This document shows positions 21,099 to 60,681 of a DNA stretch of 64,000 nucleotides, in pieces; position 1 is the first letter of the stretch; each line of letters begins with the position of its first letter. Position numbers and translations under genes: made by a program. Source of the stretch: a phage; assembly GCA_027262695.1 (NCBI GenBank), contig GCA_027262695.1_4722.1. The stretch is one strand, 5' to 3'. The notes under the pieces were generated by a model. That model worked only from the letters and a program-made list of their open reading frames with translations. It was not told where the DNA came from and searched no databases.

Positions 21099-21410
21099 TT
21101 ACTGAAACAAGACATTAAATTCGACAAGATACCCATCGGATCTATCGCCACGATACCTGTTACAGAAAACGCCGAATTTCATCAAGAACTCACATAACTC
21201 TTCGGCTTTGTATAACGGAATACGATTTTCGTCGAGCAGAGGACACATATGGCTAACCCGCTCTGACGAATCAACGCAACACAAATAAAGAAGGAATCGA
21301 ACAATAGCTCGGTTCTTAGTGAAGCTCTCGAATTCACCCGCAGCTCTGAACTCATCGAGGAGCTTTGTCGTTTTCTTCAATCGTTCACGATCAAGCATGT
21401 TAACCTCCAT
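21099..21410 (-). CDS. hypothetical protein
   Basis: 103-aa ORF. Confidence 0.45.
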   Translation of the reverse strand: MEVNMLDRERLKKTTKLLDEFRAAGEFESFTKNRAIVRFLLYLCCVDSSERVSHMCPLLDENRIPLYKAEELCEFLMKFGVFCNRYRGDRSDGYLVEFNVLFQ

Positions 21411-21420
21411 ACAAACATAA

Positions 21421-21453
21421 CCCTCCTCCTTCCCTTACGGGTTGGAGGAGGGG
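21421..21453 (-). terminator. GC hairpin followed by TTATG
   Basis: CCCTCCTCC...GGAGGAGGG; near-identical to hairpin at 60683. Confidence 0.5.
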
Positions 21454-21462
21454 ATTATGCTG

Positions 21463-21777
21463 TTATTCTGTTTTAGGTGACGAACCGTTCTTCTTGAAGT
21501 CGGATTCGTATTTCACATTAGAATCGAGAACCTCACGAACGGTTTTATCTGTACAACCGCGGGCGATATACGCGTTCAAATCGTCACGCAATTTACGCAT
21601 CGTTGTTTTATCCACATCAGAAACATCTGACTTGGTAAGACGGAATGCAATCGCATCACGAATTTTATTCAACGTTGCTGGATTATTACGCTGCTCTGCA
21701 AATACCGCTTTGATGAAGGTACCGCTGTCTTTCGAAGCAACGGCAGCATCAAGAATCTCAATATGCTTTTCAGACAT
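21463..21777 (-). CDS. hypothetical protein
   Basis: 104-aa ORF. Confidence 0.45.
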   Translation of the reverse strand: MSEKHIEILDAAVASKDSGTFIKAVFAEQRNNPATLNKIRDAIAFRLTKSDVSDVDKTTMRKLRDDLNAYIARGCTDKTVREVLDSNVKYESDFKKNGSSPKTE

Positions 21778-29614: not shown

Positions 29615-29660
29615 CGTACGTACCTCTTTGACTGTATTAATAAATCGTGTTTACTCACGT

Positions 29661-29679
29661 AAGTAATATAGCCGTGAAA
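29661..29679 (-). promoter_or_regulatory. candidate early promoter box (minus strand TTTCACGGCTATATTACTT)
   Basis: One of four near-identical boxes, each 23-71 nt upstream of a minus-strand start codon. Confidence 0.5.
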
Positions 29680-29757
29680 GGATTTGTATTGGCACGTTCG
29701 ACGTTCATCGTATTTTATGGATTGTCGAATGACGTCATTTTAAGGGACATCCCCGGC

Positions 29758-29786
29758 CTCCTCCCCAGGAAAGGTGTGGGGAGGAG
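29758..29786 (+). terminator. GC hairpin with 3' T-run upstream of SNF2 gene
   Basis: CTCCTCCCC...GGGGAGGAG TTTTTA on plus strand. Confidence 0.4.
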
Positions 29787-29820
29787 TTTTTACCAGACTT
29801 TTATTAATTCGAGTGCGAGT

Positions 29821-31902
29821 ATGTTAGATAGAATAAATCGCCTAATGAACCGGATAACGGTTAAAAATCAAAGCAACAATACCGTGCATGTTGGGGGTAT
29901 CGATGCCTGGCGTCTTTCGGACGATATCCAGCGAATCTGGGGTACCTCTCGGTTTATGAAATATATGTTTCGTAACTTCTCTTCCAGCGGTCTTAGCATT
30001 CACAACTTCTATCTGCCTGATTTCGTTTATATTCTTGAAACGATCATTGATGCAAAGAACACCCGCAGCAACAAGCGGATGCTAAAACGCCTTGTTGAAG
30101 TCTTGTTAGAAGAAACCTGGCTGCAAAATACCACCATCGAACAGCCAGCCATTCTTGATAAAGCGCGCATGAAGAAAATGATGACGCTTTCTTTGTTCGA
30201 TTATCAAGATGAGTATCTCGACATTTATAACCGCAACGTTCCGAAATATCGATTAAAAGGCCATGTGTGTGCGATGGGTGCCGGGGCGGGTAAAACAATT
30301 ACCGCGTTGGCGTTAAGCGCTGCCTTGGGTGTTGACGTCTTCGTGGCATGCTGTCCTAAGAACACCATGCGTTCGGCATGGCAATCAGATTTACATAAAG
30401 CGCTTGTGGATCCTGCAACCGAATCCGCATTCTGGTCTGATGTGATGCCCCCAACCCAGTTACAGAAAAGCGATAAATATTACTTCCTGCATTACGAGCA
30501 GATGGGATTGTTAAACGAGATCATGCTCAAGCATAAACGCACAGCAAAACGTGTGTTGATCGTTGTCGATGAAAGCCATAACTTCAACGATAAGAACAGT
30601 CAACGTTCTCAGCGTTTGGTTGATCTGGTACAGACGATGCGTCAAACCATGAATGCGGACATACATGTCTTATTTATGTCGGGTACGCCTGTTAAACAGA
30701 TGGGTTCTGAAATGATCCCATGTTTAGGTTGCATTGACCCGATGTTCCAAGGCCAGGTGGTTGATAGCTTCAAGTCGATTTACGGTTTAACCAGCAGTCG
30801 TGCTAATGATATCTTAAGGCATCGTCTTGGATTCATGATGCATGTCGTACCCAAAGAAGCTTACCGTAAGACACGGCCTGAGGTTCAGGACGTATACGTG
30901 AAACTGCCTAACGGTAGTGATTACACCATCTCAAGTATCCGTGACGATATGGCGGTGTTTGTGCGTGACCGTGCAAAATACTACAAAGATAACTGGGGGC
31001 ATTACCGGAAGATTTTCGATGATGCGCTGGATTTCTATCGTCGGACCATACGGACGGAAGGTGAGCGTAAAGAACTGTCTCGTTATGAATCCATCGTCGC
31101 CCGCTTTCAGAAAGGTTACGATCCTGTCAGGGATAAAGAAGACGCCATGTTCTGCAACGTGTTCGAGAAACGAGCGATCATGCCGATTCTTCCTCCCGAT
31201 TTACGGATTGCGTTCAAAGACGCCAAAAGCGTCATCAAGTACGTCGGATTGAAGATTCAAGGGGAAGCCTTGGCAAGGGTTCTTGGCGCAGCGCGCATTC
31301 AATGCCACGTTGATATGGTCGAGTATATCGATTTTGAAGGGTATATCAACAATGCTGAAGCCAAAGTGCTGATCTTCACGTCATACGTTCAGGTAGTTGA
31401 ACGCGTTGATAACCTGCTTCGCGATGCGGGCTTCTTACCAGAACCGATCTACGGGAAGACCAACAAGAACATTAACCAGATCCTCGCGCGATTACGCGAT
31501 GATCCTGACAGCGGTCCCGCTATCGCAACCTTTGATAGTTTAGCGGAAGGGGTTCCTATGTTAATGTGTAACGTCGGCCTTTTCTTAAATAACCCCTGGC
31601 GTTCCTCCGATGAGATCCAAGCCATCAGTCGTCTCGACCGTGTTGGTCAAACCCAACCTGTTCGTATCTATCGTTTCATGCTGGATACTGGCAGCGAAGG
31701 TAACGTTTCAACACGAAGCCAAGAGATCATGGAGTTAAGTCGTCAGCTGGTTGAAGAAATCACAGGTGTTAAATACAATGTGAATAAACAAGCCGACGTT
31801 AACCTACAAGAAACGCTGGCTATGGAAGGGTACGATAGATACTTGACGATTAATACCCCTGGGTTTGAAATCAAACCGCGTTCCACGTTCTTAGAATGGT
31901 AA
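29821..31902 (+). CDS. SNF2-family (SF2) helicase/ATPase
   Basis: LFDYQ, Walker A MGAGAGKT, DExH VVDESHN, MSGTP, motif VI QAISRLDRVGQT; start ATG 29821 or 29845 uncertain (ORF track GTG at 29647). Confidence 0.75.
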   Translation: MLDRINRLMNRITVKNQSNNTVHVGGIDAWRLSDDIQRIWGTSRFMKYMFRNFSSSGLSIHNFYLPDFVYILETIIDAKNTRSNKRMLKRLVEVLLEETWLQNTTIEQPAILDKARMKKMMTLSLFDYQDEYLDIYNRNVPKYRLKGHVCAMGAGAGKTITALALSAALGVDVFVACCPKNTMRSAWQSDLHKALVDPATESAFWSDVMPPTQLQKSDKYYFLHYEQMGLLNEIMLKHKRTAKRVLIVVDESHNFNDKNSQRSQRLVDLVQTMRQTMNADIHVLFMSGTPVKQMGSEMIPCLGCIDPMFQGQVVDSFKSIYGLTSSRANDILRHRLGFMMHVVPKEAYRKTRPEVQDVYVKLPNGSDYTISSIRDDMAVFVRDRAKYYKDNWGHYRKIFDDALDFYRRTIRTEGERKELSRYESIVARFQKGYDPVRDKEDAMFCNVFEKRAIMPILPPDLRIAFKDAKSVIKYVGLKIQGEALARVLGAARIQCHVDMVEYIDFEGYINNAEAKVLIFTSYVQVVERVDNLLRDAGFLPEPIYGKTNKNINQILARLRDDPDSGPAIATFDSLAEGVPMLMCNVGLFLNNPWRSSDEIQAISRLDRVGQTQPVRIYRFMLDTGSEGNVSTRSQEIMELSRQLVEEITGVKYNVNKQADVNLQETLAMEGYDRYLTINTPGFEIKPRSTFLEW

Positions 31903-31996
31903 TTAAGAAGCTCTGCCCGAAGGCAGAGCTTTATGCCGGATTTACCACGAAATCGTATGACGCGATATGCGTCTTTAATTAAAGGAAAAGCGCGAA

Positions 31997-33451
31997 ATGA
32001 AAATCAAACAAAGCTGGAAAGACGAATTACTTGCATTAGTTAACAGCAAAAACAGTTTACAACTGACATTAGACGACGTAAAGTTTGAATTAACCGAACC
32101 GGTAAGCGAAGTGCCCGGAACGGTCGTTGTTACAATCAAACCGAACGATAATAGTCGCTACTTTAACGAGCAGTCTCTGACCTACGTCCGTCGAGACATT
32201 GCTAAAAACTTCACCGGGATTCCGTTACGGGTTATCGTTAAGCAAGATACCGCTGTAAGGGATATCATCAATACGATTGCTGAACGTTACGGATTGGTAT
32301 TTGACACAACCGTCGACTTCCTCGAATCAGAGCTGAATAAACAAATTACTTTCGCAGACACCGGTATTAAAGACGTTACTGTTCCGGTTGCAAACACGTC
32401 TTATGTTTGGGCTGGTAATCTTCAGTTCAATATTGCGAACGATACGTTAAGCTTGATTACTATCATCAAGAAAACCAATCTTACGAATCTGGTTTATCTG
32501 GATGGTGTTGAAGCTGACACATCGGGGTCGTTACTGTTAGCCACCACAGCACTTGTTAACGATAGCGTAAATAAGCCGATGGTTGAAAACGAAGATATCG
32601 TCGATGAATTCTACAACGTTCTTAATGCTCTAGCCAAATATGGTGACATAACTGGCGATGAATTAAATGCCGCCTTACATGCGTACGATGCAGCAGAAAA
32701 CAGGAATAAAACCACGGTAATAACTCTTGGTGATATCCAGTGTGTTGCAACAGAAAAAGACGATTGGGAAATTGGACGTTTACGCGGTCAGATGGTTCTC
32801 GCGCTCAAATCCGATAAACAACCTGAGCGCGAGAACACGTTAAGGTTGTTTACGAATGGCGGTGACGTCTCACTAACGTTAAACACAATGAAAGATATCA
32901 GTATCGATTGGGGTGATGGGAATAAAGTAACGTTGGATGCTGAAGAAAGATACGCGCACCACACATACGCCGACAATAACCAGTACCAAATCGAAATTGT
33001 GTCTCGTACGGACCCAGATGTGCTGCGACCAAATTATATTTCTGGGAGTGAGATAACCGAAGTAATTCACTGGGCTACTACTTCAACAATAGCTCTGAAT
33101 TTTGTTGGATGCGATAATTTAGCGACTGTTCCAGATGAGATCCCAACTTCGTGGACAACGTTGGACAGCATGTTTGAAAGTTGTACGAATTTGAATGATC
33201 CGTCTATCTCTAACTGGAATACAAGTAACATCACATCAATGAATGGTATGTTCGGCGGATGCACTAAATTTAACCAACCTTTAGCTGCCTGGGATGTCAG
33301 CTCAGTAACTGACATTGGTGGTATGTTTGTCGGATGTGACAGTTTTAACCAAGATTTAAGTGGGTGGCGATTACCGTCAGGAGTAAACCACACCAATTAC
33401 GATGATGGTGCTTTCTCGTGGCAGACGGAACATAAACCGACATTCCAGTAA
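31997..33451 (+). CDS. DUF285/BspA-like repeat protein
   Basis: C-terminal repeats FESCTNLNDPSISNWNTSNITSMNGMF / GGCTKFNQPLAAWDVSSVTDIGGMF / VGCDSFNQDLSGW. Confidence 0.6.
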   Translation: MKIKQSWKDELLALVNSKNSLQLTLDDVKFELTEPVSEVPGTVVVTIKPNDNSRYFNEQSLTYVRRDIAKNFTGIPLRVIVKQDTAVRDIINTIAERYGLVFDTTVDFLESELNKQITFADTGIKDVTVPVANTSYVWAGNLQFNIANDTLSLITIIKKTNLTNLVYLDGVEADTSGSLLLATTALVNDSVNKPMVENEDIVDEFYNVLNALAKYGDITGDELNAALHAYDAAENRNKTTVITLGDIQCVATEKDDWEIGRLRGQMVLALKSDKQPERENTLRLFTNGGDVSLTLNTMKDISIDWGDGNKVTLDAEERYAHHTYADNNQYQIEIVSRTDPDVLRPNYISGSEITEVIHWATTSTIALNFVGCDNLATVPDEIPTSWTTLDSMFESCTNLNDPSISNWNTSNITSMNGMFGGCTKFNQPLAAWDVSSVTDIGGMFVGCDSFNQDLSGWRLPSGVNHTNYDDGAFSWQTEHKPTFQ

Positions 33452-33470
33452 AAAAAAATAGTTAGCATAA

Positions 33471-33503
33471 CTTCCTCCCTACCCATAACGGGCGGGGAGG
33501 AAG
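33471..33503. terminator. bidirectional terminator hairpin between convergent genes
   Basis: CTTCCTCCC...GGGAGGAAG flanked by A9 run (33451-33459) and GTTTATG. Confidence 0.6.
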
Positions 33504-33520: not shown

Positions 33521-33859
33521 TTAGAACCAGAGTTCTTTCATGAAGTAGGCTTCCATATCGTAAATAAGCCACTCATCTGGGATTTCTAAAGGATCGTCTT
33601 CGGTTAAGGTGAGCATGTGCAGGGCGAACGCACGCTTAATATCTTCCAACAGCTTATCATCACCGTAACCTTCGGGTAGTTTACGGTCAACCAGCTGGGT
33701 TTGTTTATAGACATCGCGGAACGCTTCAGGATTATGTTTATCCATCGGGAATTGTTCAGCAGCCTGAACCATCGAAAGCGTCCAGCTTACAACATTGTAA
33801 CGCTCACCGTTAATTTCACTGAACTTATCATCGATTAAACAGATTTGTTGTATATTCAT
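33521..33859 (-). CDS. hypothetical protein
   Basis: 112-aa ORF. Confidence 0.45.
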   Translation of the reverse strand: MNIQQICLIDDKFSEINGERYNVVSWTLSMVQAAEQFPMDKHNPEAFRDVYKQTQLVDRKLPEGYGDDKLLEDIKRAFALHMLTLTEDDPLEIPDEWLIYDMEAYFMKELWF

Positions 33860-34749
33860 ACATTTTCTCCATTCTTATCTTGGCCGCAATCACACTCTTC
33901 GGTGTCTTTCTTACTTAAACGTAAGACACCGAGTGCGGCATGCTTGAGTTCTTGCAAAGCGCTTTTCAGCTGACCTTCTTCATCGAAATCAAAATACTTC
34001 TCGTTGTAGCTTAATGCTGGAATCATATTTACGAGAGGTTCGATGGCAGGCATCAGCATCTCAATCACAACCTTAGGATCAACGAAACGTTCGAACCCTT
34101 CAGGAAGTTTACTGGTGATAACTTTGTCGTTCTTGATGAAGAATTTATTCTTGAACAGATCGTCAAGGATAGCATTCTCTTCATCGGTACGTTCAGCGTA
34201 AGGCCGATCGATCATCTGTACGAAAACACCGTTAAGGGCTTCAGGCATTGCGGGGTTCTCACGAAGGTTAAACCCTGCTGGGATTTCGATATCGATCTTC
34301 GCCCAGTCGATAACCTGATGGTCTCGCGTATAGATGACGTCAACCTCCCACGCCAAGCCATCGGTACCTTCTACGGTATAACGTGTTTTAGCTTGACCTT
34401 CTGGTGCCATACGCTCGATAGCATCGAACATCTCGACCGGAATTTCCACTTCGCTTTCCATGGCATCCCCTGGACCGCGATAAACCTTCGTGGTCATGAA
34501 GTACTTCGGTTCTTCGTTGTCGATCTGGATTGCTCGAGCACGTACCTGGCCTTTAACACCACCCACCGACGTGTTATCGTACAACCACTGGTGTTGCACC
34601 ATGTGTTCAATTTTCGTGGCGTTCTGACGTAGGATATCTACACCGTCTTCAGCCAGTTTACCAAAGAAGACCAGCTCACGTTCCTGCTGTGTCTCTCCGC
34701 TCAACATCATTAAATTGGCGATTTGTCTCACGCCTTTTACTTTCGACAT
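33856..34749 (-). CDS. hypothetical protein
   Basis: 297-aa ORF. Confidence 0.5.
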   Translation of the reverse strand: MSKVKGVRQIANLMMLSGETQQERELVFFGKLAEDGVDILRQNATKIEHMVQHQWLYDNTSVGGVKGQVRARAIQIDNEEPKYFMTTKVYRGPGDAMESEVEIPVEMFDAIERMAPEGQAKTRYTVEGTDGLAWEVDVIYTRDHQVIDWAKIDIEIPAGFNLRENPAMPEALNGVFVQMIDRPYAERTDEENAILDDLFKNKFFIKNDKVITSKLPEGFERFVDPKVVIEMLMPAIEPLVNMIPALSYNEKYFDFDEEGQLKSALQELKHAALGVLRLSKKDTEECDCGQDKNGENV

Positions 34750-34797: not shown

Positions 34798-37059
34798 TTA
34801 CAATTCGAAATCTTCATCGATAACGCGTTGGGTTAGCACCTTGTCGCTGAAGAACTCCACCTTACGTTGATGGTATTTCCGATGTGCTTCAATCGACGTA
34901 CACACCAGATACCAGAACGTGGGTGTCATACCCTCGAACTTCCCTTTCAGCTGACGTAGTCGACCTAACACCTGAATGTTACCAGTTCTCGACCCCATCG
35001 CTAACGTCATGAACGTCATCACCAAGTCAGGAAGATCGATTCCTGTACCAGCCGATTTCACCGTTGTCACACTGATATCATTATCCAGTAACACCATGAA
35101 ATCTTCTTCAGCGGTATAAGGACCTATCTCCAACTCAGGGATACGTTCACTTAAGTAATGCGATAACGACTTGCACATATCAACGGTTGCACAATACACC
35201 AACATCTTCATGCCTTCCTGATATTGGTTCATGAAACCTTTGATAATAACCGTATAGATAAAGTTGAAATAGGCGAGTTTGAGTTGCTTATTCTTCATGA
35301 TAGACTGTTCGAATACCGTGTGAGAATAAGAACCTCCAAAGCCTTTGTATCGGACTTTATCCGTACTGCGTAGTCGATACGTCACCGCATTTACCGCGAT
35401 GTATTTCTTGTATTCACATTTCGCATAACGTGCTTCTTTCGGATACATCAAATACAGCATCCGCTCGATGAACGGATCGTCAGACACCGCCGTTGCCGAC
35501 AGATAAATGATTTCCGGAATATTCGCGTAACACTTCACTTTGAACAAGAAATGCAGAGCTTCGTGACATTCATCGTGGATTAACAATCCAATGCCTGTTT
35601 TCTCCCAGAACTCGACTGGATGGAAAACATAAGGTGCGACACAGTTGTTCTTTTCATAATCGGTTATATAACGCTGAAACATGTTCAGTGAGAATAACGC
35701 AATTTTGAAATCCAACTCACCTTGTTCTACCAGCGTCTGAAATTCCAACATGCTGTAACGAGGAATGTCGGGATGCGGTGGGTCAGACTGGGCTGTACCA
35801 CGTATCTCGATAACATCACCTGGTTCCATACCGAAGAAACTTAGCAGTGAGCTACGCCATCCAGGCATGTACCTCGGTGACAGAATGATGCCCGTCCGTA
35901 CACCACGTCGGAAGGTGATCTCCTGCGACATTGCGGTGTTGTGCGTGACGATATGGTCTTTAATAACATAAAGGCTTTCGTCGTTGTCCACCGTGATGCA
36001 ACGTGCCTTCGCTTTCACCGTCGGCACGATGCCGCCAATCGCTAAACCAGGAAGCGTGTTAACGGGAAGATCATCTGGAATCTCAATGCCGTCAGGAATA
36101 AGCTTAAGCAAATCGGAATGGTAAATTAATGTCTCCATCGTGTAACTATTGATGGGGCATTTATACGCGATTCCCCCTAACCGATAAGCCAACTCCCAGA
36201 CCTCGGTCATTATCTGCGAATCGGTGGTTCTGACCGCAAGGTGAGCCCACCCTTCTTCAACACGCAGTACGCAACGATCTTTGATGAGTTCTCTGAAACG
36301 ATCAAGACCCACGAGTTCTTTCGGTTCGTAAAGTCGGATTCTTACCGGACGAGATCGTGACGATCTGTCATTAAGACGTTCCATGATTTCACTCGTGCTG
36401 AGCACCTTGTCAGGATCCGTGCATTGCCAGAGATGATCACCACACGCTTCAACCATTCGTCCATCTTCAAAGAAGACAGCGTAAAGCTGAATATCGTCAT
36501 GATCAAAGATAGCAGTTACGTTCGTCGGTAAACCATCCGCGCCGATGACCTCATCACCCACCTGGAGCTCACCAATCGGCTTCCAACCGCTTGGAACCTT
36601 AACGGGTGTATGGAGAGCCAATGCTTTCCCAGACCCCGTGCCTGCGGTGTTTAGGCTCATTCTGAAAGGGGTATCCTTACCCCCATCCATGTACTCCAAC
36701 CATTCTTGCTGATCTTCACGCCACGGAAACTTCCAGTTCTTCACAAACTCCACTTCCTTACCTGGAACCGGATCGTGGTAAACGATTTCCAACCACTCCT
36801 TTCGAATTCCTCGAGAAAAGATAAAATCCAAAAACGACTTCAGCTGTTCACGAAGTAAGTAGACCTCGCTATAATCGCTTCTTGCTGCGGCGTAGGTGTT
36901 GATGGTATCGGTGACCATTCTCCGTGTACGAGGGTCGCGTCGTTTCCGTAGATGCAAACAACGGTCTCGAAGGTAATGGCCAATCAAATGGGCAAATCGA
37001 AGTCCGTATCCGCTCAGCTTCATGCCATGCGAGAAGACGTCGATACGAGCTAACTTCAT
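34798..37059 (-). CDS. SF2 DExH helicase interrupted by an intein in motif I
   Basis: Motif I TAGTGSGK|...|T, motif II LIHDECHEA, motif VI TVKSAGTGIDLPDL; 229-aa insert between K145 and T375. Confidence 0.75.
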   Translation of the reverse strand: MKLARIDVFSHGMKLSGYGLRFAHLIGHYLRDRCLHLRKRRDPRTRRMVTDTINTYAAARSDYSEVYLLREQLKSFLDFIFSRGIRKEWLEIVYHDPVPGKEVEFVKNWKFPWREDQQEWLEYMDGGKDTPFRMSLNTAGTGSGKALALHTPVKVPSGWKPIGELQVGDEVIGADGLPTNVTAIFDHDDIQLYAVFFEDGRMVEACGDHLWQCTDPDKVLSTSEIMERLNDRSSRSRPVRIRLYEPKELVGLDRFRELIKDRCVLRVEEGWAHLAVRTTDSQIMTEVWELAYRLGGIAYKCPINSYTMETLIYHSDLLKLIPDGIEIPDDLPVNTLPGLAIGGIVPTVKAKARCITVDNDESLYVIKDHIVTHNTAMSQEITFRRGVRTGIILSPRYMPGWRSSLLSFFGMEPGDVIEIRGTAQSDPPHPDIPRYSMLEFQTLVEQGELDFKIALFSLNMFQRYITDYEKNNCVAPYVFHPVEFWEKTGIGLLIHDECHEALHFLFKVKCYANIPEIIYLSATAVSDDPFIERMLYLMYPKEARYAKCEYKKYIAVNAVTYRLRSTDKVRYKGFGGSYSHTVFEQSIMKNKQLKLAYFNFIYTVIIKGFMNQYQEGMKMLVYCATVDMCKSLSHYLSERIPELEIGPYTAEEDFMVLLDNDISVTTVKSAGTGIDLPDLVMTFMTLAMGSRTGNIQVLGRLRQLKGKFEGMTPTFWYLVCTSIEAHRKYHQRKVEFFSDKVLTQRVIDEDFEL
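35938..36624 (-). mobile_element. mini-intein (class-3-like: Ala1, W-C-T motif)
   Basis: Starts ALALHTPVKV...VGDEVIGADG, block B GRMVEACGDHLW (W at B:12), block F RCITVDN, ends IVTHN followed by Thr; removal restores GSGKT. Confidence 0.7.
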
Positions 37060-41098: not shown

Positions 41099-43419
41099 TC
41101 ATCAGCATCGATGATCTGACCACCAGCAACGTTCAACTGATGATACAGAATCCTCAACGCACGGTTACCCCCAATGGGATACTTCTCGAAGTTGGTCGCA
41201 ATCGGAATCGCAGAGGGTTTGTCGGTTGCATAGATGCTTTCCGTGATGCTATCCACCTGTTTCGGGTTGTTCGCGTAATCCATGAATACGCTTGCGAACC
41301 ATCCACCGGCAAAGGCGGTGACTTCGCGATGCTCGGATTCACCACAATAACGTGTCGGTTGCTCTTTACCCGGCGAACTGTACTTATCACTGTTGCTGAG
41401 TTTCGACGGCAAACCGTGTGCTTGCAGTTTAGGAATACCCACCGCAGACCAATCGTTCGCTGTCTTCTCCAACATCATGATGTATGTATCACCAATCGCA
41501 ATATCGTTCTTGGTGGTTCGCCATTGGCCAGAACGTCCACGATAGCGTACTGGACCTTTCTTCAACGGGAACTCTCGGATTAGGTTCTCCATACGTTCCG
41601 AACCTGCTGCGATACTGTCTGTCGGAATATAGACTTCCGTACCGTGGCGTTGTACGTAACGGAGATGATCCCATTTATCTTCGTCTGTGATACAGTGCTT
41701 CTCAACAACCTGTTCCACAAACTCAGGACTAACAATATAGTAGTAACGCATCAATGTGTTCCATGCGGTTTCCAGATCGCCTGCATCCATTACTGGTTTC
41801 AGTTCACGCATAATCTGATCACCAACACCGTTGATATAAGGTGCGTTAACACGGCTTAAACTCATCCTTTTAATTACCGTGCTGTCGTCGAACATAAAGT
41901 CCGCGACATTCCCCCATTGGTCTACGGGCATCTCGTCATCTTCCATGATATCCGTTACGACGAATTTATCACCTGCCATACCGGTAAATTTAAATCCGAT
42001 ACCCGGGACTACATCGTAGGTATACGTGATAGTCACACGCCAGTCGTCAAGATTCTCCTTACGGTAATCACGGGTTGGCAACACATGACGTAGCTGACCG
42101 TTCGGATTGCGAATATCGATACCGTGCTCAGCATCAGCGAGGTTCAACCACCACATCACCGTCTGATGATGTCTGATGGGTGTACCAGCACGTTCACGTT
42201 CGTATTTACGCACCGCATCCTGAATACGGGTATACAGCAGACCGATGGCGTTCTCATATTTCAGGAATTGACGATACGGCGGACGCATCTTCTCTTCCAT
42301 CATAATCGCACGCTCACGGGCTTGACGTCCAGAACGACGATGGCGATCACTAACCACATCGATATCCGTCACACGCGCATTCGGTTCTGCGTAGGTAAGG
42401 TCATCGTAAACGTAGTCGACACGCTGCAGGTTGCAGGTCATCATGTCGACGACGCTCAGAATCGGATCGATTTCACGGGTTGCTGCTAACAGACCATCTT
42501 TACGAATACGTTCACCGTTCTCCGGGATTGCCTGATAGACCTCATCGTCGCCGTAGAGATTAATCGGATACCTCGACTTACCTGACGTGATCGTCCGTTT
42601 CTCGATACCGGTACTGGTGAAGTGTTTCAGTACGCCACGACGGGCAACACCCCCATCCTCAATACATTGATAGAAACTCCCAAAACACACCTTGCAATCA
42701 CGTCCGTAGCCCCACTCACGCGTTTCTTGATTGATCGCCGGGCTTTCCATCAAACGAGAGTATCGAGGTACGATCTGGCCTCGACGAAGGGAATGGAACA
42801 AATTGGTGGGTCGAAAACGGAAACCGTACTGCTGATGCATGATGTGATGCTCGGGCACTTCAAGCAAGCGCAGCTCATGGCGGTTACCATCTTCTTGGTT
42901 TTCATACAGCACGTAATGCATCGTGTTTGTCTTGATGCTATTCGCGGTATGCCCAGGTTGAAAACGTGGGATGATATCTATGACGCGAGATTCAACGGGG
43001 AATTCTACCGACCATGTATTCTGACCATACTGGTATTCAATCCCCGTCGTTAATCGGGACGGCTTCGCATCTTTGATAACCAACGCTTGGCTAAGATGTC
43101 CACCAAACATCGCAGCGCGCTGTGCTGAGTTATAATGCAATAGCCCGTTAAGTCCAGTCCCTACACCCGTATACTCCTGTTTAATGGGAATGATTTTACC
43201 TTCAGCGATTGCCTGCTTCACAGATTCATAAAGAGGTTTTTCTTTATAATGCATAGGACTTCCTATTATCGAATTGAGGTACGTCATGTCTAATACGCCC
43301 CTGAACGACTTCCTTAAAACAAACCCAGAAGACCTCATCCACAACCTTGATTTCAGGAACGTTGTTGAGATGCATCTGGAATATTTCAAAAATGCCGGTT
43401 TGGTTTCTACGATAGACAT
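41086..43419 (-). CDS. RNA polymerase beta-like subunit, C-terminal part
   Basis: GMAGDKFVVTDIMEDDEMPVDQWGN...RMSLSRV aligns with beta GRHGNKGV...EDMP...NPLGVPSRMN; GDTYIMMLEK ~ GYMYMLKL; RYCGESEHREVTAFAGGW ~ QRFGEMEVWALEAYGA. Confidence 0.7.
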   Translation of the reverse strand: MSIVETKPAFLKYSRCISTTFLKSRLWMRSSGFVLRKSFRGVLDMTYLNSIIGSPMHYKEKPLYESVKQAIAEGKIIPIKQEYTGVGTGLNGLLHYNSAQRAAMFGGHLSQALVIKDAKPSRLTTGIEYQYGQNTWSVEFPVESRVIDIIPRFQPGHTANSIKTNTMHYVLYENQEDGNRHELRLLEVPEHHIMHQQYGFRFRPTNLFHSLRRGQIVPRYSRLMESPAINQETREWGYGRDCKVCFGSFYQCIEDGGVARRGVLKHFTSTGIEKRTITSGKSRYPINLYGDDEVYQAIPENGERIRKDGLLAATREIDPILSVVDMMTCNLQRVDYVYDDLTYAEPNARVTDIDVVSDRHRRSGRQARERAIMMEEKMRPPYRQFLKYENAIGLLYTRIQDAVRKYERERAGTPIRHHQTVMWWLNLADAEHGIDIRNPNGQLRHVLPTRDYRKENLDDWRVTITYTYDVVPGIGFKFTGMAGDKFVVTDIMEDDEMPVDQWGNVADFMFDDSTVIKRMSLSRVNAPYINGVGDQIMRELKPVMDAGDLETAWNTLMRYYYIVSPEFVEQVVEKHCITDEDKWDHLRYVQRHGTEVYIPTDSIAAGSERMENLIREFPLKKGPVRYRGRSGQWRTTKNDIAIGDTYIMMLEKTANDWSAVGIPKLQAHGLPSKLSNSDKYSSPGKEQPTRYCGESEHREVTAFAGGWFASVFMDYANNPKQVDSITESIYATDKPSAIPIATNFEKYPIGGNRALRILYHQLNVAGGQIIDADDCES

Positions 43420-43639
43420 ACCACCCGAACGCGCCTACGAATTCGATGGTAACTTTTATGGATTATGTCGGGTTATGCTTGGCGAAGGCAGTGAACCTAT
43501 GCACTGGGTTACCCTAAGAATCAACGGTTATCGTGATCCTACGGAATACACCGCCGATGTCCTAACGATGAAGATTGTCGATTCAAGCGCCATCAACACG
43601 TTAAAACAGCAATATCGCACAATCCACTACAGCGCTTAA
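43286..43639 (+). CDS. hypothetical protein
   Basis: Plus-strand ORF with GAGG RBS, followed by plus-oriented hairpin. Confidence 0.45.
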   Translation: MSNTPLNDFLKTNPEDLIHNLDFRNVVEMHLEYFKNAGLVSTIDIPPERAYEFDGNFYGLCRVMLGEGSEPMHWVTLRINGYRDPTEYTADVLTMKIVDSSAINTLKQQYRTIHYSA

Positions 43640-48269: not shown

Positions 48270-48288
48270 AGGTAATATAAGCGTGAAT
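48270..48288 (-). promoter_or_regulatory. candidate early promoter box (minus strand ATTCACGCTTATATTACCT)
   Basis: Same box upstream of 46630..48216. Confidence 0.45.
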
Positions 48289-53545: not shown

Positions 53546-53564
53546 AAGTAATATAGCCGTGAAA
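53546..53564 (-). promoter_or_regulatory. candidate early promoter box (minus strand TTTCACGGCTATATTACTT)
   Basis: Identical over 17 nt to the 29661 copy; upstream of 52982..53524. Confidence 0.5.
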
Positions 53565-55356: not shown

Positions 55357-55734
55357 CTGTTTGTCGACTATATCTTCATCTTCATTGCGAAGAGACTCTC
55401 GTTTGGGTTTGTGTTTAACAAAGCCTACTCTACTCAACATCGCGTCTTTCGATAGTCTGTGAGCACACATCTTAACGAATATTCGTGGGTTCCTACAGAC
55501 AGGTGAATATTCTTGTTGAGATGCTTCGCTGCGGATTATTCCCGTCCTACCTCTTTTACCATACCCAGTTCATTACGCTGGCCCTCATCGATGTCACCAT
55601 GATGAGTTGGTGTGTAGTCCGATTACAGAAACTTCCCGTCAATTAGAGAGTTTTAACTATGCTCCTGTTACCAGGAACCAGATCCCGACGGTATCAATAA
55701 ATCAACGTAAGTTATTGATTTAATTGAAAAAACT
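55357..55734 (-). mobile_element. group I intron 2 in beta-prime gene (no ORF)
   Basis: Minus-strand P AATTGACGGGAAG (55643-55631), Q AATCCGCAGCGAAG (55536-55523), R CACAGACTATCG (55460-55449), S AAGATATAGTC (55376-55366). Confidence 0.7.
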
Positions 55735-55747: not shown

Positions 55748-56114
55748 TCTTAATCTTCGATATGGTTCGCTAAGCCATATCCGCACATACGTGCAGCTTA
55801 CGTCTTTCACGTAAGAAGAGACTATATCTTTCACCCTCAGCTTTACCTGTTAGGGGCTCCCATTTCGGCGGTCGTTTGACCGGTGGTTTCCCACGCCGCT
55901 TGGCCCTAACGCCCGTGAGCGATAGTCGTTGAGCACATCTCCGTTCTGGAGACTTCGCTGCGGATTCCTCAATCCTTACTGCTTTTACCGTACCTGAATG
56001 ATTAGTTCAGCCCCACGCTCTGTTCCCAGGCATGGTTGGTGAGCAAGGCTCTAAGTAGGTTCCCGCTATTAGAGAGTTCCTCGTGACAGCATTACTGTGT
56101 CACTGGGCCTAATG
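55748..56114 (-). mobile_element. group I intron 1 in beta-prime gene (no ORF)
   Basis: Minus-strand P AATAGCGGGAAC (56069-56058), Q AATCCGCAGCGAAG (55965-55952), R CAACGACTATCG (55930-55919), S AAGATATAGTC (55829-55819); exon ends GGGT, IGS GCCC. Confidence 0.7.
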
Positions 56115-57357
56115 ACCCTTTCAAGATCATCACGCTTAACCCGATGGTGTTATCCTGCGGGTCGCGTTTAACCTTGGTGATTTCAAGACATTGGTTACTG
56201 CTACGGTCAAGTGATGGATTTCGAACAAAGCCACACACAATCCCATCGAACGGTGTATCAGCAATAAGCTCGTCATGCAGCTCGCTCATCATCGGATGAT
56301 AATTGCGGACATGCTCTGCAACGAACGCACGGGCTGCTCTTGGTGAATAACCACGATGGAATAACTTGGATTGGATATGTTCTTTATTGGTTAGTGTAAA
56401 TGGTGCGTACGGAAAATGCAGATGATAATAACGATGGTTTGCTGTTATCGAACTGATGACCGTACGTGTGGTGAATGGATGTAATGTACCTAATATGTTC
56501 TTACGTGTGATCCCTTTCTTCTTACCAATGAACTCATCGAAAATCGCCGAGTGATACTGCAACAGCTTCAATTGCACTTTCGCCATCCAGTTTTCTTTCT
56601 TTCTGGCGCTTAGTGGCGTGGTTGGATGATAGATGCTATTCAATGTTCCGATGGCGTCTATCGCACCTTCCATTTTGCTGTCAGCGTAACGTCCTGTTGG
56701 CGTGTTCTCGATCACGAACATCATGGCTGCAGGAAAGCTGATGTACTGACTGAAGAATTTATCCCGATGAATACGGATGAATTCGCGTAGCGTATCAACC
56801 TTCTCCATGTTCTTCGGTCCACGTAGTGTGGGTCCTTTATACAAGATCTCCATGATACGATCGAAGTTCTGTATAAAGCTATTTATACCGCGTCGTATTC
56901 CGAATACATCGAATTGCTGTTCCAGATAGTTCTTAAGTTCGATCGGTCGTTTTACGTTCGGACGGTAACTGGCATCAATGAGCCACGTCATCGTTTCAAA
57001 GCTTTTGATATTCAACTCGCTTGCCAGCACGAGATGGACCAACGGGTTAATGAACGCATCGATACCTTCCGGTACGCGCGCCCAGACCGTTGAACGAATC
57101 TCTTGTTCTGCTGGATAAGTGACAACCGTTTTACAGTTCGGGCACACCGTCCCTAATAACTCACCGCGATTATAGAAACCACAACCGCATTGCGGGGTGA
57201 TATCCAAGGTATCGCTCGAGTAAACACGGGTGATGAAACTGTTTAATTTCTTCTTCTCTTCCACGACCTTCGTATCATAATCGTTCAACAATATCGGCGT
57301 AAAAGGAAGTTCTGCGAGCTGTCTATCGAAACTGACGATATCGAGCATGATGGCCAT
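56115..57357 (-). CDS. RNA polymerase beta-prime-like subunit N-terminal part, exon 1
   Basis: Zinc site TPQCGCGFYNRGELLGTVCPNCKTVV ~ beta-prime YECLCGKY...CEKCGVEV; RKNILG...RTVISS ~ RFRQNLLGKRVDYSGRSVI; VRNPSLDRS ~ LNRAPTLHR. Confidence 0.75.
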
Positions 57358-59348: not shown

Positions 59349-59416
59349 TTGGGAATCCTCTTTTTCTTAACTTTTAAATGACGTCATTGAATCAGCTTTT
59401 TCTCGCTCATTCACCT

Positions 59417-59435
59417 AGGTAATATAACCCTGAAA
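59417..59435 (-). promoter_or_regulatory. candidate early promoter box (minus strand TTTCAGGGTTATATTACCT)
   Basis: Same box upstream of 57450..59348. Confidence 0.5.
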
Positions 59436-59586: not shown

Positions 59587-60681
59587 ATGTTTCGTGTTTT
59601 AAATAACCTCCCGCGAACATCATCGGGTGTGCAACCCATCCCTCAGAAAGACTACCTAATACGCGAAGTGCAAAGAAACCTACAGACAATCCAGAACCAC
59701 TACCAAGGGTTTACCTTCGCGGTTCAGAGCGATCACATCCTTGCATTGCTGCTCGCACAGCTCCCTATGAGATACGACATCTCAGTACAAACTTACTACG
59801 ACATGATCGCTGACCTTACACCAGAATTGGGGAATCGCGTTAAACTAACAACAGCGCGATACGCGGGTAAGTTATTTAACGGTGCGTTCTATCCGGGATT
59901 GCATGAAGCGATCATTGCAACCAGTGAAAGCCGTCTTATATCGCGTGACGTTCTCGATAACTGGCGTAACTGGTCTCCGGTCAGAATCGTGACACACCCC
60001 TACGCGAATCTTCGCTATATCCCTCTACATCGAAAACCGGTTGAAGAAGGACGGGGTTTTGCGGTCATCATGATCGATGTACCTTTATTAGCGTTGCAGT
60101 ATCGCATGTGGTCATTAGTCATGGGTCACAACGTCGATGGTAAATGGGTGGTTAAAGAACCTGTTACAAGTTTCATTGCCAGTTTTCCTTTGGTCAATGC
60201 ATTATACACACACAACGACGTGGCTATCCGCAATCGTTGCTTATGGGTACCTCCGGCTAAGAATCCGCTCAAGTCACCGATTTACGTCAACGATCTGGAT
60301 AACGTTTTCAGTCAAGTGGTGCTGACCGTCCAACATCAGCTATTACGAAGAAAACGTAGTTACACCGATATGTTGAAACAGATACCGAGTTTATACGAGG
60401 ATCAATTTCAAGCAACACGCATGGGTTACACCATCGATCTTCGACAAACACGGTGGGCAAGGGATCTCGGATGTTTGTCTTTATGGCAACAGCTTGTTAC
60501 CTTGCAAAACGTTTCAGAAAGCGTCGGCTTCAGTAGTCAAACCGACAACGACTTATATCGTGCAGCCGATCGAAGTCTAAAAGAAGGGAATTGGGAATCG
60601 TCTCCTTTACCCGGTGATCTACGACGCGAGGTTATCGCACAGGTTGCTGATCTTTTAAAAATACTTCCCGCTGGTGCATAA
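59587..60681 (+). CDS. hypothetical protein
   Basis: 364-aa plus-strand ORF ending at bidirectional hairpin. Confidence 0.5.
   Translation: MFRVLNNLPRTSSGVQPIPQKDYLIREVQRNLQTIQNHYQGFTFAVQSDHILALLLAQLPMRYDISVQTYYDMIADLTPELGNRVKLTTARYAGKLFNGAFYPGLHEAIIATSESRLISRDVLDNWRNWSPVRIVTHPYANLRYIPLHRKPVEEGRGFAVIMIDVPLLALQYRMWSLVMGHNVDGKWVVKEPVTSFIASFPLVNALYTHNDVAIRNRCLWVPPAKNPLKSPIYVNDLDNVFSQVVLTVQHQLLRRKRSYTDMLKQIPSLYEDQFQATRMGYTIDLRQTRWARDLGCLSLWQQLVTLQNVSESVGFSSQTDNDLYRAADRSLKEGNWESSPLPGDLRREVIAQVADLLKILPAGA

Follow-up and report, generated by a model that had tools for sequence, protein, structure and literature searches.

The two genes considered here have close counterparts in gp160 and gp161 of Escherichia phage vB_EcoM_Goslar. 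In Goslar virions purified on caesium chloride (CsCl), gp160 is represented by 15 peptides and ~10.6 copies and gp161 by 27 peptides, 54% coverage and ~111 copies; gp161 is one of ten DUF7941 proteins, its paralogue gp22 forms filaments, and a DUF7941 'fibre cloud' anchored at the peripheral baseplate has been proposed, in which host recognition would fall to the additional domains that gp86, gp92 and gp161 carry (10.64898/2026.04.21.720040, preprint April 2026). Counterparts of gp160 are known from other phages: RAY gp131 localises with capsids (PMC10299810), and phiKZ gp203 undergoes proteolytic processing, is packaged in the head and co-pellets with genomic DNA, and it tolerates transposon insertions and is non-essential (PMC12676376). 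The transcription signals of phiKZ have also been described. Its late-promoter core is TATG with the start at G (PMC4666361), its terminators follow the motif 5'-BCCYCCCCHWWDGGGRRGGBYTTATKYYGT-3' and include bidirectional ones between convergent genes (PMC10914365), and in both phiKZ and 201phi2-1 terminators in 5' untranslated regions (UTRs) give rise to abundant short RNAs by premature termination (PMC10914365; PMC11512511). Here we compare with these systems a pair of plus-strand genes, encoding an SNF2-like helicase and a protein with DUF285/BspA-type repeats, in a 64-kb stretch of phage DNA (contig GCA_027262695.1_4722.1, 64,000 nucleotides), the whole of which we call the window.

Sequence matches mark the source of the window as a Goslar relative, a nucleus-forming jumbo phage of the Chimalliviridae: the locus aligns to Goslar at ~85% nucleotide identity (megablast), and the chimallin, DNA polymerase and RNA polymerase subunit genes of the window stand in the same order as in Goslar. 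The minus strand holds nearly all other long open reading frames (ORFs), and the plus-strand ORFs at the locus occupy 29647..31902 and 31997..33451 (484 amino acids, aa). The likely start of the first gene is the ATG at 29821, which yields 693 aa and is identical to the start of Goslar gp160. A preliminary description of this DNA had read the pair as an island, perhaps inserted. We propose instead, with considerable confidence, that the locus is a conserved counter-oriented virion-protein unit inside a block of replication, nucleotide-metabolism and transcription genes. Its genes and their immediate neighbours are as follows.

29821..31902, plus strand: helicase gene, SNF2-like superfamily 2 (SF2) ATPase/helicase of 693 aa, Goslar gp160 orthologue
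31997..32548, plus strand: gene 2, constant part (aa 1-184), with the DUF7941 domain at aa 1-156 and a disordered linker at aa 157-175
32549..33451, plus strand: gene 2, variable distal part (aa 185-484) and stop codon, with a helical/beta region, a beta-rich region and a leucine-rich repeat (LRR)
33155-33394, plus strand: DUF285/BspA-type LRR of gene 2 (aa 387-466), Pfam PF03382
33521..33859, minus strand: 112-aa gene convergent with gene 2, Goslar gp162 orthologue
33856..34749, minus strand: 297-aa gene converging on gene 2, Goslar gp163 orthologue

The arrangement is shared with relatives. In Goslar, gp160 and gp161 (NC_048170, 142953-146585) have the same orientation and the same neighbours as in the window, with an HD-domain gene on one side and the 112-aa and 297-aa genes on the other, and pair and neighbours are identically arranged in five further Goslar-like contigs from metagenomes and enterobacterial assemblies. 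Such synteny contradicts the idea of an insertion. The position of the pair within a long minus-strand run is confirmed by the ORF map, and orientation goes together with function: the minus-strand genes of the window serve mostly replication, nucleotide metabolism and transcription, and all four genes that reach 100 aa on the plus strand encode virion proteins in Goslar. It had been stated that only the pair and two single genes lie on the plus strand; both single genes are found, but a third, shorter ORF has to be added to them.

43286-43639, plus strand: gp172 orthologue; Goslar gp172 is an inner-baseplate protein in the cryo-electron microscopy model
59587-60681, plus strand: gp245 orthologue; Goslar gp245 is present at ~16 copies per virion by mass spectrometry
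21249-21476, plus strand: gp145-like ORF of 75 aa, mapped from the Goslar annotation

The strand switch most likely marks separately transcribed virion genes. The opposite orientation, a leader of its own and hairpin terminators of the chimallivirus type would set transcription of the pair apart from that of the surrounding operons, presumably at middle or late times.

The helicase is 92.5% identical to Goslar gp160 and belongs to phrog_62. ResIII (40.8 bits, cut-off 22.5) and Helicase_C (30.5, cut-off 23.5) pass in Pfam, SNF2-rel_dom falls just short of its threshold (24.7 against 24.9), and the best PDB sequence matches are the C-lobes of the SNF2-family proteins SWR1, SMARCA5, DDM1 and ISWI (E 3e-7 to 1e-4). 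The earlier call of an SNF2-like helicase was right. The motifs GAGAGKT at 153, DESH at 250 and SGTP at 287, together with QAISRLDRVGQ read from the translation, point to intact catalytic motifs I, II, III and VI and to two RecA-like lobes of the SF2 type. By tblastn, 205 phage records contain homologues, every one from a phiKZ-like jumbo phage, and in 193 of the 205 at least 80% of the query is covered; in phiKZ-like records identity is about 30-39% over >90% of the length. On these alignments the window protein belongs to a family-wide virion SNF2-like ATPase, with phiKZ gp203, 201phi2-1 gp300, RAY gp131, OBP gp263 and EL gp166 as orthologues. The latter are full-length homologues (29-35% identity), each counter-oriented, and virion- or capsid-associated wherever tested; the 201phi2-1 genome record gives gp300 as a virion mass-spectrometry protein similar to phiKZ gp203 and EL gp166. 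By analogy with these orthologues, the window helicase would be packaged in the virion as well.

The helicase gene runs against both its flanks in seven of seven further lineages, namely RAY, Proteus phage 10, Vibrio phage Aphrodite1, 201phi2-1, fnug (phiKZ species), EL and OBP, and hence in all eight lineages inspected; this orientation is therefore ancient within the family and has been stably kept. Most lineages have one or two further genes reading the same way after the helicase, and across lineages these are unrelated to one another: phiKZ and 201phi2-1 have gp202/gp201, for which the record annotation of 201phi2-1 notes identification by virion mass spectrometry; OBP and EL have internal-head-like proteins, with OBP gp262 carrying the annotation of a putative virion structural protein; RAY has a glycine-rich protein; and in Proteus phage 10 and Aphrodite1 no such gene follows. 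The post-helicase genes of RAY, 201phi2-1, phiKZ, EL and OBP carry no DUF7941 or DUF285 domain, fall into different PHROGs and are unrelated to gene 2.

The second gene of the pair joins a virion module to an adhesin-like tip. Its product matches DUF7941 (PF25613) at 91.2 bits against a cut-off of 27 over residues 4-255, and its N-terminus falls into phrog_1037, 'virion structural protein'. In the distal part, DUF285 (PF03382) scores 88.9 bits against a cut-off of 25 over residues 387-466, where three ~26-residue FxxCxxFN...WxVSxVT repeats are found and NCBIfam reports its PARCEL/26-residue repeat; the DUF285/BspA-like assignment made earlier was correct. An AlphaFold2 model based on 42 homologues (mean predicted local distance difference test score, pLDDT, 83) gives, in order, a globular N-terminal domain (1-156), a disordered linker (157-175), a helical/beta region, and a confident beta-rich region with an LRR solenoid, so that the LRR is seen both as a profile match and as a fold. 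The N-terminus itself, MKIKQSWKDELLAL..., belongs to the folded DUF7941 domain of the model. Fold comparison matches this domain to residues 1-150 of PHIKZ127 (phiKZ gp127), a protein of the outer peripheral baseplate, whereas single-sequence and profile searches of gene 2 against PDB chains gave chance-level matches, and tblastn of the whole gene and of both halves detected no paralogue within the window.

A globular N-terminal domain followed by a disordered linker is common to gene 2 and the DUF7941 proteins Goslar gp22/gp23 and phiKZ gp126/gp127. Gene 2 differs from these in its large extra distal module ending in the LRR, and the ~111 copies of Goslar gp161 lie far below those of gp22/gp23, at 580 and 2140. 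The ~26-residue repeat and the LRR fold are those of bacterial BspA-like/DUF285 (PARCEL) surface proteins, but in gene 2 the repeat is fused to a virion module and the N-terminus reads as DUF7941, not as a signal or lipoprotein sequence. The preliminary description had called such repeats typical of surface or adhesin-like proteins and unexpected among replication and transcription genes. The adhesin-like character stands; the surprise does not, because the N-terminus is the chimallivirus virion module DUF7941 and chimalliviruses scatter virion genes among replication genes. As a virion component with an adhesin-like tip fused to a chimallivirus-specific assembly module, the gene 2 product therefore fits its location.

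The two parts of gene 2 evolve very differently. Relative to Goslar gp161, residues 1-184 are ~97% identical and the distal 300 residues ~38%; at the DNA level, identity stays at 92-95% up to about nt 32550, drops abruptly to ~50% until the stop codon and then returns to 88%. For comparison, the helicase and the next helicase gene are 92.5% and 98-99% identical between window and Goslar. Among 20 full-length orthologues from Goslar-like genomes, pairwise identity is 86-100% (median 95%) over residues 1-184 and 37-99% (median 63%) over residues 185-484. Among the distal alleles one can tell apart at least a group of the window type, a broad group of the Goslar type and an intermediate form; the window class, distinct from that of Goslar, is common to P0001-P0003 at 74-94% identity. 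The boundary between constant and variable parts lies just past the predicted disordered linker. Fibre and receptor-binding proteins of tailed phages, such as those of the T4 gp37 type and the T-even adhesins, have a constant N-terminal anchor and an exchangeable C-terminal tip. The sharp switch from conserved anchor to divergent tip within one ORF is shared by gene 2 and these modular tail fibres, although its anchor is a DUF7941 module of the filament-forming type and its tip an LRR. The combination of a constant anchor and a fast-evolving or exchanged distal part corresponds to the classical signature of receptor-binding proteins, and this pattern of variability lends independent support to the proposal that gp161-type proteins take part in host recognition.

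Upstream of the helicase, and at the ends of both genes, the locus carries conserved elements.

29706..29792, plus strand: invariant 87-nt leader block, with TATG at 29716-29719, the palindrome ATGACGTCAT at 29729-29738, a hairpin and a T-run
29758-29786, plus strand: leader hairpin, 10-bp stem then TTTTT (T-run 29787-29791), -21.7 kcal/mol
29663..29678, minus strand: promoter-like box TTCACGGCTATATTAC upstream of the divergent HD-domain operon, invariant in four phages
31907-31932, plus strand: intergenic hairpin, 11-bp stem then TTTATG, z -4.85, absent from the preliminary description
33471-33503, both strands: bidirectional hairpin between the convergent gene 2 and 112-aa gene, z -4.9 (plus) and -5.8 (minus)

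The divergent intergenic region contains two blocks that are invariant in four phages, the 87-nt leader and the minus-strand box. Window, Goslar, L011 and L013 agree at every position of the leader block (100% identity), with flanking coding DNA at ~83-88% (the per-segment identity table covers L001, L011 and L014). Its hairpin, correctly described beforehand as plus-oriented with a T-run, has a stem resembling the phiKZ terminator consensus CCYCCCC...GGGRRGG (PMC10914365). When the hairpin 29758-29786 and the putative 74-nt leader RNA were folded, the z-score against shuffles was only -0.83 for the hairpin, since a sequence of its C-run and G-run composition folds well in any order. By analogy with the 5'-UTR terminators of phiKZ and 201phi2-1, a ~73-nt attenuated leader RNA is a reasonable, if putative, reading. 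A more elaborate scheme can be drawn from it, which we offer as speculation and regard as improbable in its entirety: transcription would start at G 29719, most transcripts would end at the 29758-29791 terminator to give the ~73-nt RNA, regulated read-through would time expression of the helicase and the fibre-adhesin, ATGACGTCAT could be a shared binding site for a phage factor, and the hypervariable distal module might act as a host-range cassette occurring naturally in Goslar-like phages.

Could the leader hairpin be an insulator only, stopping stray plus-strand antisense transcription that arises in the upstream minus-strand genes? Its orientation and T-run would suit that task, no plus-strand gene lies upstream, and the Goslar authors annotate it simply as a terminator. 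Yet in four phages with coding DNA that differs by 12-17%, all 87 nt from the TATG box through the hairpin are unchanged, more than a bare hairpin requires, and the precedent in phiKZ and 201phi2-1 is of 5'-UTR terminators that yield abundant short RNAs. We consider the insulator unlikely, while granting it a real chance, and keep the attenuated leader as a candidate reading.

The box on the opposite strand has wider occurrence. With the consensus TTCAsGsyTATATTAC, it is found in four copies, all on the minus strand (29663-29678, 48272-48287, 53548-53563 and 59419-59434), each with <=2 mismatches in a search allowing 3, against 0.56 expected by chance; each copy lies upstream of a minus-strand gene, one of them the chimallin gene. 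TTCACGGCTATATTAC is probably the promoter of the HD-domain operon, and the box probably represents a phage promoter class, which would be early or middle. A second motif, AATGACGTCATTT with core ATGACGTCAT, is seen in the helicase leader (29728-29740) and upstream of chimallin (59376-59388) and is conserved at both places in Goslar; when mismatches are allowed its count is not above chance, and the case rests on the two exact conserved copies. A scan for sigma-70 promoters was uninformative (11 sites against 10.6 expected), as expected because such phages use their own polymerases. Rfam at gathering thresholds and ARAGORN returned nothing in the locus, and a literature search for the string TATATTAC returned irrelevant papers only.

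The hairpins themselves belong to a recurrent class. The Goslar annotation has terminators at all three corresponding places, and the hairpin at 33471-33503, earlier called a bidirectional terminator, is indeed strong on both strands. It has an A9 run at one edge and GTTTATG at the opposite edge and is nearly invariant, being conserved in seven phages with 93.9% of cells paired. The two outer hairpins had been taken to delimit the pair; this holds for 33471-33503, but 29758-29786 lies upstream of the helicase gene within its leader and is not a unit end. Between the two genes, the hairpin at 31907-31932 has the form of a terminator or attenuator, with 98.5% of cells paired over 6 distinct sequences and one compensatory pair (C-G in three, U-A in three). 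Compared with the phiKZ terminator motif, the hairpins at 29758 and 33471 have CCTCCCC/GGGGAGG stems and those at 31907 and 33471 continue with TTTAT; the loops are longer here, and termination at these sites in Goslar-like phages would follow from this likeness. The pattern CTCCC-N(4-20)-GGGAG occurs nine times in the window (1204, 19147, 27845, 29761, 33475, 39772, 43647, 52945 and 54419), against 0.26 expected by chance, and by comparison with the ORF map the sites are mostly intergenic. A simple terminator scan returned none of the three main hairpins, apparently owing to its loop and tail rules, the loop of the leader hairpin being too long.

Some observations on these hairpins stand by themselves. 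Some of the CTCCC-N(4-20)-GGGAG hairpins lie just upstream of start codons, where the GGGAGG arm might also act as a sequestered ribosome-binding site. The bidirectional hairpin has a flipped tip in L013 and L015: its middle 15 nt (window 33480-33494), TACCCATAACGGGCG, are exchanged there for the exact reverse complement, CGCCCGTTATGGGTA. In the phiKZ-type phage fnug (L008 3739-3757), a plus-oriented GGAGCCC-CTGGT-GGGCTCC followed by TTTAAT precedes the gp203 homologue by ~270 nt, within an intergenic region of 374 nt. The helicase unit may thus share a leader terminator across phages.

What might the two proteins do? For the helicase we envisage that some ten copies are packaged in the capsid and stay bound to the packaged DNA, that the protein is probably delivered together with the genome and the virion RNA polymerase, and that after delivery it would use ATP to remodel, or to translocate along, the incoming protein-coated DNA. 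A simple pattern search of the first 140 residues gave no prohead-protease S/A/G-x-E site, so that processing as in phiKZ gp203 is unsupported for the window helicase. A different role would be that of an anti-restriction factor of the P1 DarB type, guarding incoming DNA rather than helping transcription or remodelling. NCBI names several homologues 'DarB-like antirestriction' (EL gp166, PhiPA3 233 and Vibrio phage proteins), and a head-packaged, DNA-associated protein that is non-essential in the laboratory host is what one would expect of an accessory that counters defence; weak NCBIfam matches to the defence SNF2 ATPases DrmD and DpdE and to a dnd restriction enzyme point the same way. The helicase of P1 DarB is accompanied by a methyltransferase domain. 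In the window protein, however, Pfam gives helicase domains only and none of the methyltransferase type, every NCBIfam score is far under its cut-off, the DarB annotation was given by similarity only, and chimallivirus DNA is already shielded by vesicle and nucleus. This function is doubtful in our view, though not far-fetched, and we favour the packaged remodelling ATPase.

For gene 2 we envisage that the constant DUF7941 domain and linker plug the protein into DUF7941 filaments leaving the peripheral baseplate, and that the hypervariable distal part, tipped by the LRR, would be displayed outward and bind a structure of the host surface. Variability of the distal part might instead be driven by an arms race, if the product were an effector, ejected or intracellular, with an LRR that targets a host or defence protein as bacterial LRR effectors such as IpaH and SspH do. 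Against this stand the match of the N-terminal domain to phiKZ gp127, whose modelled place is the outer peripheral baseplate, the filament formation of gp22, and the carbohydrate-binding and glycoside-hydrolase domains, typical of external host recognition, on the sister DUF7941 proteins gp86 and gp92; ~111 copies per virion is also high for an ejected effector, though not impossible. An effector is accordingly a poor candidate, and a baseplate-anchored adhesin better accommodates these features.

That the pair reached a replication and transcription block by horizontal acquisition, as a moron or insertion, is most improbable, for although the pair is oriented against its flanks, has hairpins at both ends and includes a gene of slightly low GC content (0.425 for gene 2 and 0.461 for the helicase, against a background of 0.458 +/- 0.027 in flanking genes) with a DUF285 domain of a kind widespread in bacteria and other jumbo phages, it has identical neighbours in Goslar and in five contigs of the Goslar type, the helicase is family-wide and so is its counter-orientation, the N-terminal module of gene 2 is reported in chimalliviruses only (10.64898/2026.04.21.720040), exchangeable or fast-diverging behaviour is limited to the distal half of gene 2, and no obvious integrase or transposase candidate was seen among ORFs of at least 50 aa in or beside the locus (seven neighbouring ORFs Pfam-scanned). 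The hallmark of an insertion, absence of the pair at an otherwise conserved junction, was not seen in the six related loci examined, all of which contain the pair. Nor was deviant base composition or codon usage found for either gene relative to flanking genes: GC lies within background, and the codon-usage distances of both are inside the range of similar-length genes. GC skew is positive over 29-33 kb, a change of sign expected because the coding strand switches. Conserved in relatives and normal in composition, the pair is therefore inherited content.

Several points nevertheless weigh against our account of a conserved virion unit with its own transcription and an adhesin at its end. The pair is conserved as such in Goslar-like phages only, other lineages carrying an unrelated gene after the helicase. 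Virion association is not exclusive to the plus strand, since the minus-strand products gp162 and gp163 are in the Goslar virion mass-spectrometry list, and chimallin appears there too, so the list includes proteins that are not obviously structural. We infer both the timing and the transcript boundaries of the pair. As a box, TATG is too short for a statistical test or for proof of a late promoter, and a late-promoter role is thus a suggestion drawn from its likeness to phiKZ; covariation in the intergenic hairpin is weak, with its single compensatory pair and 55/500 shuffles reaching the observed score. Finally, the fibre cloud is itself a proposal, with filaments documented for gp22 only and no density in the Goslar baseplate map (10.64898/2026.04.21.720040), and receptor binding by the gene 2 product is to be read as a prediction. 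As to the two minus-strand neighbours, gp162 and gp163 are abundant, at ~127 and ~45 copies, in the Goslar virion proteome, and their window orthologues match no Pfam family. Together with the pair they may form one four-gene virion cluster around the bidirectional terminator.

In these terms the locus is an ordinary one and largely already known: both genes are orthologous to described Goslar genes whose roles have been addressed in recent literature, and the pair is inherited chimallivirus content whose two proteins have characterised orthologues. What is new is modest, namely the hypervariability of the distal module, the family-wide counter-orientation of the helicase and the invariant leader. 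The anchor and tip signature of gp161-type proteins is that expected of a host-range determinant and provides comparative support for the DUF7941 fibre-cloud model, and we nominate residues 185-484 as the segment to swap for retargeting Goslar-like phages. Strand may serve as a cheap predictor of expression class in poorly annotated chimallivirus genomes. The invariant leader with its built-in terminator is a candidate source of 5'-UTR-derived small RNAs of the kind seen in phiKZ and 201phi2-1.

Two further features of the window lie outside the pair. Beside the RNA polymerase beta-subunit gene (56092..57357), a 988-nt stretch free of ORFs contains two matches resembling group I introns on the minus strand, at 55357-55726 (49.2 bits, narrowly missing the Rfam gathering score of 50; E 4e-11) and at 55798-56135 (26.9 bits, E 2e-4). 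At the equivalent place Goslar has an annotated group I intron with an HNH endonuclease gene, whereas the window apparently has no HNH ORF. In the minus-strand gene 34798..37059, an insertion of 228 aa (35941-36624, minus strand) splits the Walker A motif of an SF2/XPB-like DNA helicase (GTGSGK|ALALHTPV...IVTHN|TAMSQE), and its flanks are 98-99% identical to Goslar gp164, itself without the insertion. The insertion has no Pfam match; it starts with Ala and has H-L-W, RCITVD and VTHN|T, and on these motifs it looks like a class-3 (WCT-type) intein. A gene product of 753 aa, the length of the insertion-bearing helicase, is called in L011 and in L013-L016.

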